The notes beneath the pieces were generated by a model. That model did not search any database, was not told the origin of the DNA, and saw only the letters and a program-made list of their open reading frames with translations. Source: a phage. Taken from it: a stretch of DNA of 64,000 nucleotides. A program made the position numbers and the translations under genes. Where the stretch lies: sequence record PZ000613.1; one strand, 5' to 3'. Below are positions 16,138 to 26,087 of this stretch, one piece after another. The stretch's first letter is position 1, and each line of letters starts with the position of its first letter.

Positions 16138-16500
16138 ATGAATACACGTCCCATCAAGGGCAACGTTAATATTGAAACTCTGAACAAGGTTGCATCAAAC
16201 CTCGGTGGTATGTCCAACGAAGAACTTGAGCAAGAACTTGCTTGGATTGCAAATGGTATCACAATTGCTAAAGGTAAGATGGCTCGTGAGCAAAGTAATA
16301 TGAAAGCTCACAAGTATATCATCCGTCGTGCAAACATGTTACCGGATCGGGTTGTACATCTTGCCCGTAAGAACTACGAAAGTGCTAAAGAAGCCCTGCT
16401 TGAAGCAGAGTTTCAGAAGCATCAATTTATGAACAACTATCGAAACTTCCGAGATATTCTTTATATCCGTAAATCGATTGAGTTGATTAAAAACCAATAG
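16138..16500 (+). CDS. Hypothetical protein (120 aa)
   Basis: ATG ORF, first gene of the amidoligase-cluster operon. Confidence 0.6.
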   Translation: MNTRPIKGNVNIETLNKVASNLGGMSNEELEQELAWIANGITIAKGKMAREQSNMKAHKYIIRRANMLPDRVVHLARKNYESAKEALLEAEFQKHQFMNNYRNFRDILYIRKSIELIKNQ

Positions 16501-16511
16501 AGGTTGGTATA

Positions 16512-17708
16512 ATGTTTCCAGTAACATTAGAAGATACTGAAGGTAATGTTTTAACGGTCAACCCCCCTTGTTATGGGTTCCTTCAACTTCGAAACTATAA
16601 TGGCGGCGTTGATGAAAATGATGACGAAGATGATGACTACTTCGACCCTAACATGTATGAGGCAACTCATGGATGGAATATGCACGTTCGAGTGTGGCAT
16701 GAAGAAGCTAACGTTCGTAGTGCTGATGGGGAAGAGTTCCTGTTAAGCCGAGAGATGGATATGTGTAAAATCAAACATATCTGGAACTCCGGAACTCACA
16801 TGAAGATGTTAGGTTTTAGACGTTGGAGTGATGAAAAACCTGTATCCGCAGCTTTAGGTTGGGGTGCAATCGATCATGAAGGCGAGCTTAAAAATAACAT
16901 CGAACGTTGGAACGACAAAAACCCTGAACACCGAACCACACCTCGTGCTGTACTGGAAGCTATGGAAGCATTTGTGGACAAAGATCGTCCCTCCTGTTTA
17001 CGCTGGCACGATAAAGGTTTTATGGGGGTAGCAACTGAGAACATCCCTGCTGATCGTTGTCTGTTCTATTTGATGTTAGACCGAACCTTCTATTGTGAAG
17101 ATGAAGAAAGTCAAGTTGAAACCTTCCTCCATAAATGGTTGGTTGAAGGCTGGACAATCCTTCAGGCTTATGTTTACTCACGAATGGTTAGCACTTACAC
17201 TAACCTCTTGGGTGAAACGAAAGCAACTCTGGTTGGTAATGATTGGGATGCTTGTATCTTCCCAGCGTCGCTATTTACAGTTGGTATGGCTGATAAATAC
17301 GCTGAAGCATTTCAAGTGCCTTGGCGTCAACAGTCATACAGAGATGGATGCGGTCACTTCCGTGATGAAGACTTTAAGTGGATCCATTATGAGAATGATG
17401 AAACAGCAGAATTACGAGTTAACAACTCAATGTTCTTGCCAGTGATGCACCCCGATCTAGTAAAAGATGGTTCAGAGATACTTAAAGGTGATAATCTTTT
17501 GGTTAACTTTACCCGTCGCGTGTCTAAAAATGAGAGAACAGCTAACAAGCTAATCTACGGTATTCGTGCCGAGGCTAAAGACCTGTTCAACATCTACAAC
17601 ATCATTCAGCGATTTAGTAGTGGAACTCTGGACCAAAGTTCGGAGTATTCAGTGATTCCATCCTCTGAGTGGGATGGTATTATGAGCGGATTATTTTTAG
17701 GAAAATAA
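16512..17708 (+). CDS. Hypothetical protein (398 aa), amidoligase-cluster component
   Basis: Long ORF with acidic N-terminal tract and conserved Cys/His/Trp; no family recognised by eye. Confidence 0.7.
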   Translation: MFPVTLEDTEGNVLTVNPPCYGFLQLRNYNGGVDENDDEDDDYFDPNMYEATHGWNMHVRVWHEEANVRSADGEEFLLSREMDMCKIKHIWNSGTHMKMLGFRRWSDEKPVSAALGWGAIDHEGELKNNIERWNDKNPEHRTTPRAVLEAMEAFVDKDRPSCLRWHDKGFMGVATENIPADRCLFYLMLDRTFYCEDEESQVETFLHKWLVEGWTILQAYVYSRMVSTYTNLLGETKATLVGNDWDACIFPASLFTVGMADKYAEAFQVPWRQQSYRDGCGHFRDEDFKWIHYENDETAELRVNNSMFLPVMHPDLVKDGSEILKGDNLLVNFTRRVSKNERTANKLIYGIRAEAKDLFNIYNIIQRFSSGTLDQSSEYSVIPSSEWDGIMSGLFLGK

Positions 17709-17718
17709 AAGGTTAGTT

Positions 17719-18690
17719 ATGTCAATCTCCACAACGATCGTACCTCTGAATCTTCAACAAGATTTAGGGGAACAGAAGTTCTTAGGTCGTGGGTGCTTCG
17801 GTATTCACAACTACATGCAAGGCCAATGCGTAATTGATATTAATGGCGAAGTTATCACGGAGGAAGGGCGTTATAGACGCTTCAACCGTGATATCAACTT
17901 GCAATTGGAGATGTTGAATTACTGGACTCACTCTTTTCACGGTCATGTTGCATCTGATATTGAAAAGAACCTGGTTGAAACAGCAGACATTATGAACTCT
18001 ATGTCTTGCTATCGTGACGTATTTACAATCACTTCAGCGAATAGTGTAGCTGTCAACCTCCGTGAGCATCCAGCAGATCAAATCTTCACAGGACTTATGC
18101 TCTTTCGTAGTATTCTGGAAGGGCAATATCGTGGAATGGATTTCCTAGCAGAAGGAATTGAAGACAGGGAAGAGTGGCTGAAGCGTAAACGCATCGGCAT
18201 CGCTTTAGTGTTAGCTGGGTTGGGTCGTGACTTCTTCGGTGGATGGTCTCAACGAGGAAGAGCCAATGGGAGTAGTGAGAGCACATCTATTGTTGTCAAC
18301 AATAATATGTCAGCAGCAGCCTTCCTTCCTTTGGTTGTAGACTCTGATGAATACACGAAGCAAGTATGGGTTCAAAACCCCTTCGGTGTTGGCGACAACG
18401 AGAATGGTTATGTTCGTAACCATAACCAAGATGCCTTACGAAGATTTGCTCGTGCTAAAGATCAATACCCTGGCGAGTATGAAACAATGTCAGAGTGGTT
18501 AAGACTCTGGTCCAACTGTCATGGTCACAAACGTGAAGCAATAGACAATAAGTTGGAAAACATTACAGTACAAAACTTTACAGCCCGACTAATTCAGCGT
18601 ACTGGAGCAGATTCCGGTCTTACTCTTGAAGAAGTTGGTAACACAATCTCATCTCTCTTTTCTGAACTAGTGGAGTATTACAATGACTAA
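17719..18690 (+). CDS. Hypothetical protein (323 aa), amidoligase-cluster component
   Basis: Long ORF tightly spaced with neighbours; no family recognised. Confidence 0.7.
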   Translation: MSISTTIVPLNLQQDLGEQKFLGRGCFGIHNYMQGQCVIDINGEVITEEGRYRRFNRDINLQLEMLNYWTHSFHGHVASDIEKNLVETADIMNSMSCYRDVFTITSANSVAVNLREHPADQIFTGLMLFRSILEGQYRGMDFLAEGIEDREEWLKRKRIGIALVLAGLGRDFFGGWSQRGRANGSSESTSIVVNNNMSAAAFLPLVVDSDEYTKQVWVQNPFGVGDNENGYVRNHNQDALRRFARAKDQYPGEYETMSEWLRLWSNCHGHKREAIDNKLENITVQNFTARLIQRTGADSGLTLEEVGNTISSLFSELVEYYND

Positions 18691-19489
18691 GCGCAAATTT
18701 CTTATCGGCTCTGACCCTGAAATGTTTGTTCGTACTAGCAACGGTATCATCACCTCTGTAGCCGGTTTATTAGGCTGCTCTAAGGACGATAAGATCGCTC
18801 TGGCTAAGGATGTTCGTCTCCAAGAGGACAACGTACTGGCTGAGTTTGATATTGACCCACAGAGCGGTTTTGAAGCGTTTAACGATAACATGCAACGTGG
18901 TATTGATCTCACCAATAATGTCCTGAACAAACTGGACATGGAAACAGCTCCGGGTGTTAGCTCTCACATCTTCACTGAAGAAGAGATGAAGACTTTCAAT
19001 GAATCAGCGTTCATCTTCGGATGTACTCCTGACTTCAACGCTTTCACTGGTCAGAAAAACCCATCCCCAACTTCTCAGAACAAGGGACTTCGTACTGCCG
19101 GTGGTCACGTACACCTTGGTGTGGTTGGTGCTTTGGATATCACTCTTCAAACTCAGATGATGCTTGGCGTGCTGTGTGACTACTTCCTGTCACTCCCAGC
19201 AGTAATTATGGACAAAGACACTCGCCGTAAAGAACTCTACGGTAAAGCATCTGCAATCCGTTATAAAGACTATGGTATTGAATACCGTTCGCTGTCTAAC
19301 TTCTGGATTAGTGATCGTGAAAACCGTAAGTTTGTTTACGATCAGGTTGACAAGGTTGTTCAGCAGTGTGATATGTCTACTCTCATGGCATTGCACTCTC
19401 GCCTTCCGATTGAGAAGCTTCATGAAATCATTAACGGTAACAACGTTAAAGAAGCGGACCAGCAGATCAAACTCCTTCAGGTAGCATAA
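18683..19489 (+). CDS. Putative amidoligase-like protein (divergent paralog)
   Basis: IGSDPEMF, LAEFDIDP and GGHVHLG segments parallel the GIELELEG, CEMVCSRP and STHVHMD motifs of the adjacent amidoligase. Confidence 0.55.
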   Translation: MTKRKFLIGSDPEMFVRTSNGIITSVAGLLGCSKDDKIALAKDVRLQEDNVLAEFDIDPQSGFEAFNDNMQRGIDLTNNVLNKLDMETAPGVSSHIFTEEEMKTFNESAFIFGCTPDFNAFTGQKNPSPTSQNKGLRTAGGHVHLGVVGALDITLQTQMMLGVLCDYFLSLPAVIMDKDTRRKELYGKASAIRYKDYGIEYRSLSNFWISDRENRKFVYDQVDKVVQQCDMSTLMALHSRLPIEKLHEIINGNNVKEADQQIKLLQVA

Positions 19490-25221: not shown

Positions 25222-25403
25222 ATAAGTATAAAGTTCTGTTTAAAGACACCAATGCAGCTGGTGAGATGCGAGCAATGGACATTGACGCTGACTACTTCAA
25301 CTCTTATAACAATAAGGTAGAGTTCTGTCAGGATAAAGAAGTTGTTGCTTCTTTTAATGACGAAGTAATCTGCGGTGTAATCAAAATCTTTATTACAGAG
25401 TGA
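25218..25403 (+). CDS. Hypothetical protein (61 aa, GTG start)
   Basis: Overlaps upstream stop. Confidence 0.45.
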   Translation: MNKYKVLFKDTNAAGEMRAMDIDADYFNSYNNKVEFCQDKEVVASFNDEVICGVIKIFITE

Positions 25404-25456
25404 TCTGCTTTAGCCTCTTCGAAAGAGGGGGCTAGTTCGGATAAACTGGAGGTTTT

Positions 25457-25666
25457 ATGAAACATGAAAGATTGAGTAAAGCCGTTGATTCTGTATGGGA
25501 TTCTGGGTGTATTATATACCGAGAGCACGACTCATACGGACAAACCAGAATATTGATTCTTAATCCCTTCTGTGAACAGTTGGGGTTTGAAGTGTTTGTA
25601 ACAGGAGCCACTGATCAGCAGTGTGCTTACATTGAAAACATCATGAAAGACTGGAAAGGTATTTAA
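25457..25666 (+). CDS. Hypothetical protein (69 aa)
   Basis: SD GGAGG upstream of ATG. Confidence 0.5.
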   Translation: MKHERLSKAVDSVWDSGCIIYREHDSYGQTRILILNPFCEQLGFEVFVTGATDQQCAYIENIMKDWKGI

Positions 25667-25667
25667 A

Positions 25668-26087
25668 ATGTCAGAAGTAATTTACGTAGCAACTTATGGT
25701 TCTCTTCGTCGCGGTCAAGCTAACTATTTAGTTAATGACCGAGCTGGTGCTAAGTCTATTGGCGAAGGTTGGACTGAAGATAACTTCGATCTGTTCCGTT
25801 ACGGTGGTTCCTACTTCCCGAGCATCTCTCTCGCACACAGCAATAACAATAAGCCTGTTCGTGTAGAAGTGTTTGCTACTGACAAAGCAGGTCTGGAAGG
25901 TCCGTATGACCGTCTGGAAGGTTACAACAAACATAGCCCTGAAGACAGCTTCTACCAGCGTACTCAGATTGCTGTTAAGATGGACTCAGGTGAAACTGTT
26001 ATCGCTTGGATTTATCATATCGACGAAGAACAAGATGTTCTGGTTGAATCTGGCGACTGGTCAGAGTATCTGAAAAGTGAATCTTGA
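25668..26087 (+). CDS. Gamma-glutamyl cyclotransferase-like (AIG2/GGCT fold) protein
   Basis: N-terminal YVATYGSLRRGQANY and C-terminal GETVIAWIYH resemble AIG2/GGCT signatures. Confidence 0.6.
   Translation: MSEVIYVATYGSLRRGQANYLVNDRAGAKSIGEGWTEDNFDLFRYGGSYFPSISLAHSNNNKPVRVEVFATDKAGLEGPYDRLEGYNKHSPEDSFYQRTQIAVKMDSGETVIAWIYHIDEEQDVLVESGDWSEYLKSES

Follow-up and report, generated by a model that had tools for sequence, protein, structure and literature searches.

A phiEco32-type amidoligase module in a Kuravirus genome and its candidate gamma-glutamyl amide chemistry

The stretch of DNA analyzed here (hereafter the window, 64,000 nt of record PZ000613.1) derives from a Kuravirus, i.e., a phiEco32/SU10-like podophage of E. 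coli. All ten ORFs named in the original prediction were found at their expected positions, and every feature described below lies on the + strand. Across 15983-26307, intergenic gaps range from -20 to +79 nt, with five overlapping gene pairs, the widest gap (79 nt) being located 5' of the amidotransferase gene; a search of the cluster for a convincing internal terminator found none. This compact, same-strand arrangement is as predicted and, judged from the DNA, is consistent with a single transcription unit, while falling short of proof. The module is most likely read from the early/middle leftward unit of the phage (rightward in the window), and proteins encoded by it have been seen among early gene products in preparations of SU10 (SU10 proteomics).

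The cluster opens with a basic, helical protein of 120 aa (16138-16500; phi32_89 in phiEco32; PHROG 11370, E 3e-73; pI 9.8). A distant relative carries a 119-aa ORF at this position, and a 13.9-kDa protein matching it in size was detected by SU10 proteomics. Next lie X1 (398 aa, 16512-17708; phi32_88) and X2 (323 aa, 17719-18690; phi32_87). X1 yielded a confident structure model, and the predicted fold has no counterpart among solved structures; X2 is a probable remote paralogue of X1, and the two belong to one phage-only family. A further protein, X3 (205 aa, 19499-20116; phi32_85), adjoins the downstream amidoligase gene with a 4-nt overlap. X3 had no match in Pfam and was found in 116 phage records by tblastn. 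SE131, LAh_9 and LUZ24 (gp17) carry homologues at the identical position, and X3 lies directly 5' of the amidoligase gene wherever it is recognizable. X3 is a probable partner of the amidoligase; a 23.3-kDa protein of matching size was also detected by SU10 proteomics.

Five enzymes accompany these proteins, and the families originally assigned to them hold by Pfam, PHROG, NCBIfam and PDB matches, with the catalytic residues kept in all five according to family alignments across lineages. Three are ligases with intact catalytic motifs, two of them carboxylate-amine ligases of the GCS/GS superfamily. The COOH-NH2 ligase type 2 (18683-19489; phi32_86) passes the Pfam cut-off for PF14395 (E 2.3e-8, 34 bits), matches PHROG 3815 (E 3e-118) and keeps D11/E13, H142/H144 and E200/R202 invariant across seven lineages. 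The Amidoligase_2 enzyme (20113-21216; phi32_84) likewise passes its cut-off (PF12224, E 4.5e-8), matches PHROG 7469 (E 6e-159) and has invariant E31/E33/E35, H95/H97 and E186/R188. The former had been taken for a divergent amidoligase-like paralogue, which stands at the level of superfamily and motifs but not at that of the family, as hhalign detected no significant match between the PF14395-type and Amidoligase_2-type families. The third ligase is a RimK/Ddl-like ATP-grasp enzyme (23770-24966; phi32_80). In Pfam it reached only 18.3 bits for RimK and 18 bits for Ddl_C, both under the cut-offs; however, it matched the PHROG 'S6 glutaminyl transferase' family (E 3.5e-186), the RimK/MptN NCBIfam models (5e-8 to 5e-7) and alpha-L-glutamate ligases in the PDB, and it retains the invariant ExR, K and D...ExN motifs. 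It additionally carries an acidic linker from residue 279 and a C-terminal domain of ~75 aa from residue 323, and its homologue was detected by SU10 proteomics.

The fourth enzyme is a class-II (Ntn, Cys1) glutamine amidotransferase (21296-23326; phi32_83; GATase_6, E 1.1e-14). Its gene starts with ATT, right behind an in-frame TAG AAA and with the Cys codon next; because of this ATT, the automated ORF start was placed at 21374. Behind the Ntn domain (~residues 1-240) come a linker and then a beta-rich domain, as well as three Cys4 zinc motifs (residues 440-467, 487-515 and 641-671; DNA 22613-22696, 22754-22840 and 23216-23308), in agreement with the predicted fusion to zinc ribbons. Equivalents of GlmS R73, T76, N98-G99 and D123 are kept, and with them every GlmS residue that grips L-glutamine via its free alpha-amino and alpha-carboxylate groups; profile searches recognized no synthase domain in the protein. 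The fifth enzyme is a GGACT/AIG2-type gamma-glutamyl(amine) cyclotransferase (25668-26087; phi32_77), whose best Pfam match is GGACT (PF06094, E 3.4e-17; gamma-glutamyl amines as substrate) rather than AIG2_2, and whose YGxL and catalytic E84-G85 are invariant. Neither transmembrane nor signal-like segments were seen, and all enzymes are acidic.

Several small ORFs are interspersed among the enzyme genes. The basic 77-aa protein (23329-23562; phi32_82), previously left without a family, belongs to Pfam DUF7195 (PF23825, E 4.7e-17), with homologues in SE131, LAh_9, LUZ24 (gp20) and a metagenomic relative; in several lineages its gene lies directly 3' of the amidotransferase gene. The neighboring 74-aa ORF (23543-23767; phi32_81) matches only PHROG 13464 and is confined to close relatives: no homologue was detected in the seven other module-bearing lineages compared. 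The slot is variable elsewhere, and the ORF is probably not part of the core. The three small genes expected between the ATP-grasp and GGACT genes are present, yet one of them encodes gp79 (24973-25221; PDB 9m7y_G, E 1e-51, full length), a factor that binds RNA polymerase, displacing sigma70 and activating the phage sigma (PMC12276001; PMC8948821). It is a transcription factor located inside the cluster and unrelated to amide chemistry. Another small ORF, of 69 aa (25457-25666), is absent from phiEco32 itself and constitutes the sole difference in gene content between this cluster and that of phiEco32, which otherwise carries the same genes in the same order from phi32_89 to phi32_77 (X3 is 99% identical at the protein level, and DNA-level relatives of the whole cluster reach ~95%).

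The gene-neighborhood comparison proposed with the prediction revealed the same order in phiEco32, in a distant relative whose X1 homologue is just 32% identical, and in LUZ24-like, SE131-like and LAh-like phages, and chance can be dismissed on this basis. The three ligases co-occur tightly (307, 302 and 314 phage records for the phi32_86-type, phi32_84-type and ATP-grasp enzymes, respectively, with matching genus counts), and in most lineages inspected the module lies just upstream of the primase/helicase. Its composition is conserved in Kuravirus, Grimontviridae, Lahexavirus, Bruynoghevirus, Zobellviridae and a Stenotrophomonas phage, and its gene order in the first four. The GGACT gene lies inside the module in the LUZ24, CW02, RIO-1, LAh_9 and StenR_269 loci, while in SE131 a GGCT-annotated gene lies ~3.7 kb further downstream. 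Cassettes of RIO-1-like (Zobellviridae), PA11-like and LUZ24-like (gp14-gp22) podophages, each described as a 'Peptidoglycan modification cassette' (Hardies 2013, Duhaime 2017), contain the same five enzyme families, upstream of the primase/helicase where inspected. LUZ24, SE131 and LAh_9 further share the upstream pair, as well as X3 and an ORF resembling DUF7195. In contrast to the window, these RIO-1/PA11/LUZ24-like cassettes have one zinc motif in the amidotransferase rather than three, an ATP-grasp whose length leaves out the acidic linker and C-terminal domain, and an upstream pair diverged from X1/X2 beyond sequence recognition. In Zobellviridae, moreover, the gene order is shuffled and a Peptidase_C26 gamma-glutamyl hydrolase is added (CW02, O4). 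The cluster is a real and intact copy of the phiEco32-type amidoligase module. The shared gene order may stem largely from the common ancestry of these podophage replication modules and not from functional coupling, and adjacency by itself is a weak argument, given that gp79 and variable small ORFs are interleaved.

Taken together, the families and their conserved catalytic residues fit the general idea that the module makes, extends and trims an amide-linked, gamma-glutamyl-type adduct, which we hold, with moderate confidence, to be the best explanation of the module as a whole. Since the module products are soluble and acidic, this chemistry would take place in the host cytoplasm. On an acceptor that carries an amine or carboxyl group, the ligases would assemble a peptide-like, gamma-glutamyl-containing adduct, forming as many as three new amide bonds. 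The Ntn domain may supply glutamine-derived ammonia to amidate a carboxylate or hydrolyze a gamma-glutamyl amide, as EgtC does; with no recognizable synthase partner domain, it could act either way. The GGACT enzyme would take the gamma-glutamyl group off an amine as 5-oxoproline. The conserved proteins that do not look like enzymes (the X1/X2 pair, X3 together with the amidoligase, and DUF7195 together with the amidotransferase) most likely serve acceptor recognition or scaffolding. By analogy, the enzyme chemistry would resemble the protect-extend-deprotect logic of butirosin synthesis, in which BtrJ (ATP-grasp) and BtrG (AIG2-like cyclotransferase) handle a gamma-glutamyl protecting group on the carrier protein BtrI. 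The likeness, drawn by shared families only, lies in an ATP-grasp paired with a GGACT/AIG2-family enzyme that takes gamma-glutamyl off an amine, whereas the module has no acyl-carrier protein, PLP decarboxylase or acyltransferase. The C26 hydrolase added in Zobellviridae reinforces gamma-glutamyl chemistry, and published readings concur on amide or peptide-bond chemistry; the gamma-glutamyl component itself rests on family analogy, and ligases of the GCS/GS fold, like ATP-grasps, are able to activate other carboxylates as well.

As for the acceptor, our first choice is a small molecule of the cytoplasm or a precursor of the cell wall, followed by a protein and, last, nucleic acid. The module might rewrite the peptide side chain, either of peptidoglycan itself or of the precursor in the cytoplasm, with a D-Ala-D-Ala-ligase-like ATP-grasp and gamma-glutamyl ligases at work alongside amidation or trimming. 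The cell wall of the infected host would be changed as a result, e.g., for superinfection exclusion. Later papers, relaying Iyer 2009 and Hardies 2013, describe the cassette so, and the weak Ddl matches of the ATP-grasp, the gamma-glutamyl bond and amidatable carboxylate of the stem peptide, and the cytoplasmic location that all the enzymes share with UDP-MurNAc-peptides agree with it. Yet this is a sequence-based prediction, the ATP-grasp scores higher with RimK/MptN alpha-L-glutamate ligases than with Ddl, and the module has no Mur-ligase, MurT/GatD-type, transpeptidase or membrane component. Nor does peptidoglycan act as receptor for these podophages, which bind O-antigen and LPS. Moreover, the substrates of GGACT enzymes are L-gamma-glutamyl amines, a mismatch with the D-iso-glutamyl bond, and we regard a peptidoglycan target as rather unlikely. 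Equally doubtful is a role in remodelling host metabolites, in which a small gamma-glutamyl molecule, such as a glutathione-like peptide or, by PuuA/PuuD logic, a gamma-glutamyl-polyamine, is made or consumed and host polyamine or thiol pools shift in favor of the phage. The gamma-glutamyl cycle employs four enzyme types, namely a GCS-like ligase, an ATP-grasp synthetase, an Ntn hydrolase and a cyclotransferase, and the enzyme set of the module parallels these as well as the PuuA/PuuD pair; its cyclotransferase is of an amine-specific type, the residues binding glutamine or gamma-glutamyl are intact, and the hydrolase of CW02 and O4 is PuuD-type. In PuuA/PuuD (gamma-glutamyl-putrescine synthetase and hydrolase) and EgtA/EgtC (a GCS-type ligase with a gamma-glutamyl hydrolase akin to class-II amidotransferases), as would be the case here, a GS/GCS-fold ligase makes a gamma-glutamyl amide that an amidotransferase-fold thiol hydrolase cleaves, and an NCBIfam search returned a weak EgtC match (E 2.5e-4). 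However, scores against these systems are far under family cut-offs, and the module exceeds them by two ligases and four conserved proteins. Three ligases plus four conserved proteins of no assigned role seem too many for simple catabolism. Zinc motifs and extra domains would also be left over, and for the zinc motifs and the extra C-terminal domain of the ATP-grasp a macromolecule would be a better fit as target than a metabolite.

Such a target could be a protein, to which Glu or a peptide is added or extended in a Pup/PafA-Dop-, LysW/LysX- or RimK-like manner, whether a host or phage protein or a small-ORF product used as tag or, as originally suggested, as carrier. Two paralogous GS-fold enzymes beside small proteins recall pupylation (PafA ligase, Dop deamidase and Pup), the ATP-grasp is RimK-like, docking of a protein could be mediated by the zinc motifs, the acidic linkers and the extra C-terminal domain, and DUF7195 is conserved beside the amidotransferase. 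The proposed carriers nevertheless fare poorly: among DUF7195 homologues neither terminus is conserved and no Lys, Glu, Asp or Cys stays invariant from lineage to lineage, DUF7195 by eye looks like a strand-helix-helix DNA-binding protein, the 74-aa ORF is restricted as described above, and a PDB sequence search found no Pup, LysW or ubiquitin-like relative. We consider protein modification or tagging improbable. Least plausible, and by our estimate very improbable, is hypermodification of nucleic acid or nucleotides with an amino-acid-type group. This would explain the restriction-modification resistance of Gordonclarkvirinae, which BASEL data show to be marked, with no known modification pathway or inhibitor; EcoRI (9), EcoRV (25), EcoKI (5) and EcoP1 (86) sites do occur in the window, published viral contigs show amidoligase and amidotransferase domains alongside thymidine-hypermodification genes, the module adjoins replication genes, and its zinc motifs could bind DNA. 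Profile searches of the cluster, however, found no base-activating enzyme, with no 5-HMUDK, aGPT-Pplase, dUMP/dCMP hydroxymethylase, DpdA or TET/JBP match, and the enzymes are acidic. Furthermore, GC-rich palindromes and CCWGG are strongly avoided (five CCWGG sites against 73 expected), indicating that the DNA is exposed to type II enzymes, and the LUZ24-like phages, which carry the module, are not known to have modified DNA.

Overall, the original observation is confirmed and its interpretation partly supported, but the cluster is no new find. As noted in the prediction, the phage amidoligase system was defined computationally in phiEco32, by Iyer, Abhiman, Burroughs and Aravind (Mol Biosyst 2009). 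The phiEco32 cluster is its founding example, PF14395 bears the name 'Phage phiEco32-like COOH.NH2 ligase-type 2', and the module is routinely annotated in ~300 phage records, usually as a "putative peptidoglycan modification cassette". Also in line with the prediction, the sources searched gave no experimental product or target for it; they gave no acceptor, phenotype or solved structure either. The module is an already described system rather than a new discovery. What is new here is the recognition of X1 and X2 as a phage-only family, the fold of X1 without a solved counterpart, the position of X3, the ATT start of the amidotransferase gene, the identity of one small downstream gene as gp79, and small ORFs that do not have the conserved termini of a carrier or tag.

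The 9.95-kb region that holds the cluster (16138-26087, + strand) shares 94-96% DNA identity with dozens of Kuravirus genomes, among them IMEP8, Paul, SU10, NJ01 and the BASEL phage Bas91. Ninety-nine phage records match it, 66 of them over at least 80% of its length, and these matches identify the window as a phiEco32-like E. coli podophage. Every ORF named in the original prediction is present on the + strand at its predicted coordinates, and the cluster matches phiEco32 gene for gene, in the order (phiEco32 numbering) phi32_89 (120 aa), 88 (the 398-aa ORF X1, 16512-17708), 87 (the 323-aa ORF X2, 17719-18690), 86, 85 (the 205-aa ORF X3, 19499-20116), 84, 83, 82, 81, 80, 79, 78 and 77, with the primase/helicase gene phi32_75 shortly downstream. 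Between 15983 and 26307 the intergenic spacing runs from -20 to +79 nt, with five overlapping pairs, and a terminator scan, run alongside a scan for sigma70-like promoters, found no convincing internal terminator within the cluster. The phiEco32 gp36-type promoter (tAATGTAtA) has no match on the + strand of 16138-26087; the sole match there is a one-mismatch site on the - strand (22347), and window-wide counts lie at chance level. Just one intergenic gap in the cluster is sizeable (79 nt); it precedes the amidotransferase gene and carries an 8-bp GC-rich hairpin (21224-21244), placed right after the amidoligase stop codon and lacking a downstream U-tract. An RNA element in this gap was considered and rejected, as the gap offers one 8-bp hairpin and a regional folding z-score of only -1.7. 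Of note, the 69-aa ORF at 25457-25666 is a mobile accessory gene inside the cluster, absent from phiEco32 at this position and with a homologue in Salmonella phage SE131 (E 2.5e-25). Outside the cluster, a tRNA-Arg gene (anticodon TCT) lies at 11499-11574, as annotated in related Kuravirus genomes.

Profile searches bore out most of the predicted enzyme families, with Pfam matches for the COOH-NH2 ligase, Amidoligase_2, class-II amidotransferase and GGACT calls. The phi32_86-type COOH-NH2 ligase (18683-19489) matches PF14395 (E 2.3e-8, 34 bits against a cut-off of 25) and PHROG 3815 (E 3e-118), and the Amidoligase_2 enzyme (phi32_84, 20113-21216) matches PF12224 (E 4.5e-8, 33.7 bits against a cut-off of 22). 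In alignments across up to eight phage lineages, the D/E...HxH...ExR triads are invariant in both of these GCS/GS-type ligases; homology between the two is not significant by hhalign, the only support for it being the collinear motif triads. The ATP-grasp call (phi32_80, 23770-24966) fared less evenly: the protein scores below the curated cut-offs of Pfam RimK (18.3 bits versus 21) and NCBIfam rimK_fam (29 bits versus 143), yet it matches a PHROG family (E 3.5e-186), RimK/MptN/Ddl models and alpha-L-glutamate ligases in the PDB, and its ATP/Mg2+ motifs (ExR, K, D...ExN; E157/R159, K173, D229 and E241/N243) are invariant in eight lineages. The SE131 orthologue exceeds the RimK cut-off (30.1 bits). 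At 24604-24966 the ATP-grasp protein additionally has a linker of acidic, low-complexity sequence (from residue 279) and a distinct domain of ~75 aa at the C-terminus (PHROG 20552), whereas the shorter homologues of LUZ24, O4, CW02 and RIO-1 have neither. The GGACT cyclotransferase (phi32_77, 25668-26087; PF06094, 63.6 bits) retains an invariant YGxL motif (Y10, G11, L13) and an invariant catalytic Glu (E84-G85).

The amidotransferase (phi32_83, 21296-23326) has a class-II amidotransferase domain at its N-terminus, with the nucleophile Cys1 directly after the initiator: ATT-TGT behind an in-frame stop in the window, MCG(I/L) in other lineages. In its start region (21284-21301) the ATT start is immediately preceded by an in-frame TAG AAA, with aGGTGGa lying 7 nt upstream. 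The start codon is likewise ATT in Bas91 and Paul, ATC in Pseudomonas phage O4 and ATG in other lineages; the non-ATG starts led the annotators of Paul and O4 to cut off the N-terminal nucleophile, and so weak a start codon may keep expression of the enzyme low. When aligned to GlmS (1xff), the equivalents of the glutamine-binding and oxyanion residues R73, T76, N98-G99 and D123 are invariant in eight phage lineages, a residue set predicted to hold glutamine or a gamma-glutamyl group via its free alpha-amino and alpha-carboxylate groups. Over its C-terminal two-thirds the protein has three Cys4 zinc motifs and no recognised domain, at least one motif being aligned in every lineage examined but StenR_269. 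Neither a fused nor a partnered synthase (ammonia-acceptor) domain was found, the C-terminal 435 residues having no Pfam or PDB sequence relative; since no synthase domain is recognisable, an EgtC-like hydrolase role is possible for this enzyme. Zobellviridae modules contain an extra gene: CW02 gp2 (235-882 of the CW02 locus) matches Peptidase_C26 (gamma-glutamyl hydrolase, PuuD-like class-I amidotransferase fold), and O4_58 (3860-4480 of the O4 locus) is its homologue by phmmer.

We further characterized the ORFs of no recognised family, which are integral, conserved parts of the module. X1 is predicted with confidence to adopt a fold that has no counterpart among solved structures; the X2 model is poorer (pLDDT 70), with generic matches only. 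Direct comparison of X1 and X2 by BLASTP and hhalign gave no significant similarity. They have in common, however, an invariant PAD(R/Q)xxxxLMxxR helix, paralogy can be detected within the equivalent pairs of SE131, LAh_9 and StenR_269, and hhalign gives weak, position-consistent links; on these grounds X1 and X2 probably belong, as remote paralogues, to a single phage-only family. The many charged residues that are invariant in them suggest a role in binding a ligand or in catalysis. A GS-like ligase identity, an idea taken from the 'glutamine synthetase' label on the StenR_269 analogue, was rejected because that analogue has no Pfam match and the models match no GS-like fold. X3 is encoded immediately upstream of the amidoligase; SE131, LAh_9 and LUZ24 have homologues of it.

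The small ORFs had been proposed as substrates or carriers, an idea that found no support here, given the variability of one, the restricted occurrence of another and the identity of a third. A host protein may still fill such a role. The 77-aa ORF (phi32_82, 23329-23562) is DUF7195 in Pfam, and its gene comes immediately after that for the amidotransferase in Kuravirus, SE131, LAh_9, LUZ24 and a metagenomic relative. Its termini vary between lineages and its sole invariant residues are R15, P18, P49, P51 and I54, with no invariant Lys, Glu, Asp or Cys; a Pup/LysW-type conserved reactive C-terminal Glu/Gln or acceptor residue is thus absent from DUF7195. By eye, this basic protein (pI 9.4) appears to be strand-helix-helix, like ribbon-helix-helix DNA-binding proteins; a PDB profile search with DUF7195 gave no match. 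For the 74-aa ORF (phi32_81, 23543-23767), no homologue was found beyond close relatives in the lineages compared. The ORF at 24973-25221, embedded between the ATP-grasp and cyclotransferase genes, is gp79 (PDB 9m7y_G, E 1e-51), an RNA-polymerase factor with cryo-EM structures (PDB 9m7y), through which sigma70 is displaced and the phage sigma factor activated.

We searched 50,697 phage records by tblastn and found the amidoligase in 302, the phi32_86-type ligase in 307 and the ATP-grasp ligase in 314, with near-identical genus counts for the three (Pseudomonas 120-121, Escherichia 93-94, Proteus 8, Salmonella 7, Cronobacter 6). A Porphyromonas phage match is a lone amidoligase gene among virion genes. 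The same enzyme families recur in seven annotated loci (LUZ24, SE131, LAh_9, CW02, O4, RIO-1 and StenR_269), and the Kuravirus gene order is preserved exactly in the metagenomic relative, whose X1 has just 32% identity. In most of the seven a primase/helicase gene lies just downstream; as these phages also have replication-module features in common, part of the synteny may reflect common descent and not function. In larger C3-type relatives the module is bordered by NAD-salvage genes (PRPP synthetase, nicotinamide phosphoribosyltransferase), and in the metagenomic relative by Ter-family genes, these flanking regions lying at 14130-17268 of the LAh_9 locus, 1-665 of the SE131 locus and 362-2889 of locus L011.

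The window adds no new system; this one is known already, as a prediction. Pfam names PF14395 'Phage phiEco32-like COOH.NH2 ligase-type 2', and the cluster genes are already labelled in the GenBank entries of Paul, Bas91, SU10 and other phages. Later papers credit Iyer et al. 2009 and Hardies et al. 2013 with a seven-gene 'peptidoglycan modification cassette', proposed to change the cell wall and block superinfection; the later papers list it as conserved in phiEco32, 7-11, PA11, tf, MR299-2, LUZ24, PaP3, CW02 and RIO-1. SU10 proteomics detected the ATP-grasp, amidotransferase and YtfP/GGACT proteins, listed as early gene products, as are proteins of X3 and phi32_89 sizes, also present. Full-text literature searches up to mid-2026 yielded no experimental product, target or phenotype of the module, and structure searches no solved structure of any member.

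Taken together, the original observation is confirmed and its interpretation partly supported. Profile matches and invariant motifs show a module of three active-looking ATP-dependent amide ligases, a putative glutamine- or gamma-glutamyl-binding Ntn thiol enzyme and a GGACT-type cyclotransferase, all five soluble and acidic. The ligases would assemble a gamma-glutamyl-containing, amide-linked adduct in the cytoplasm; amidation or trimming of the adduct would fall to the Ntn enzyme, and removal of a gamma-glutamyl group as 5-oxoproline to the cyclotransferase, a logic that resembles BtrJ/BtrG, PuuA/PuuD and EgtA/EgtC. As to the acceptor, a peptidoglycan precursor, the published idea, is a tentative candidate that we consider rather unlikely, and a gamma-glutamyl small molecule is neither more nor less so; a protein acceptor is distinctly less probable.

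Lower still do we place the reading in which the module, including X1, X2 and X3 with their unrecognised folds, installs or supplies an amino-acid-type modification (gamma-glutamyl or amide) whose target is phage DNA, a nucleotide or some host defence factor, and DNA or a nucleotide as such is the least probable acceptor. Lee et al. place amidoligase and amidotransferase domains near thymidine-hypermodification genes, and we took the criteria for such base-hypermodification clusters from their work (2018, 2021). Against a DNA acceptor, the cluster contains no base-activating enzyme: Pfam and NCBIfam gave no match to 5-HMUDK, aGPT-Pplase, dUMP hydroxymethylase or TET-JBP (20 ORFs Pfam-scanned, 15264-29987), and the nucleotide-related entries in the Bas91 annotation are thymidylate synthase, dCTP deaminase and dNMP kinase only. 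The avoidance of restriction sites points the same way. EcoRI (9), EcoRV (25), EcoKI (5) and EcoP1 (86) sites are present in the window, but GC-rich 6-mer palindromes and CCWGG are strongly avoided, with eleven such palindromes lacking any site, CCWGG found 5 times against 73 expected, and all 6-mer palindromes together 703 times against 1073. This avoidance is relevant to the unexplained restriction-modification resistance reported for the Gordonclarkvirinae subfamily. Were the modification reading true, the module would be the missing explanation for that broad resistance, and X1 and X2 would form a new enzyme class, one that activates acceptors or acts as transferases.

Genetic tests are practical, since the published BASEL collection contains Kuravirus isolates able to plate on E. 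coli K-12 whose O-antigen has been restored. The module is among the most widespread multi-enzyme cassettes in lytic podophages, occurring in at least six lineages, and for over 15 years no product has been assigned to it. Working out what it does would bring to light a new metabolite or modification made by phages, and might also account for phenotypes such as superinfection exclusion or restriction resistance.
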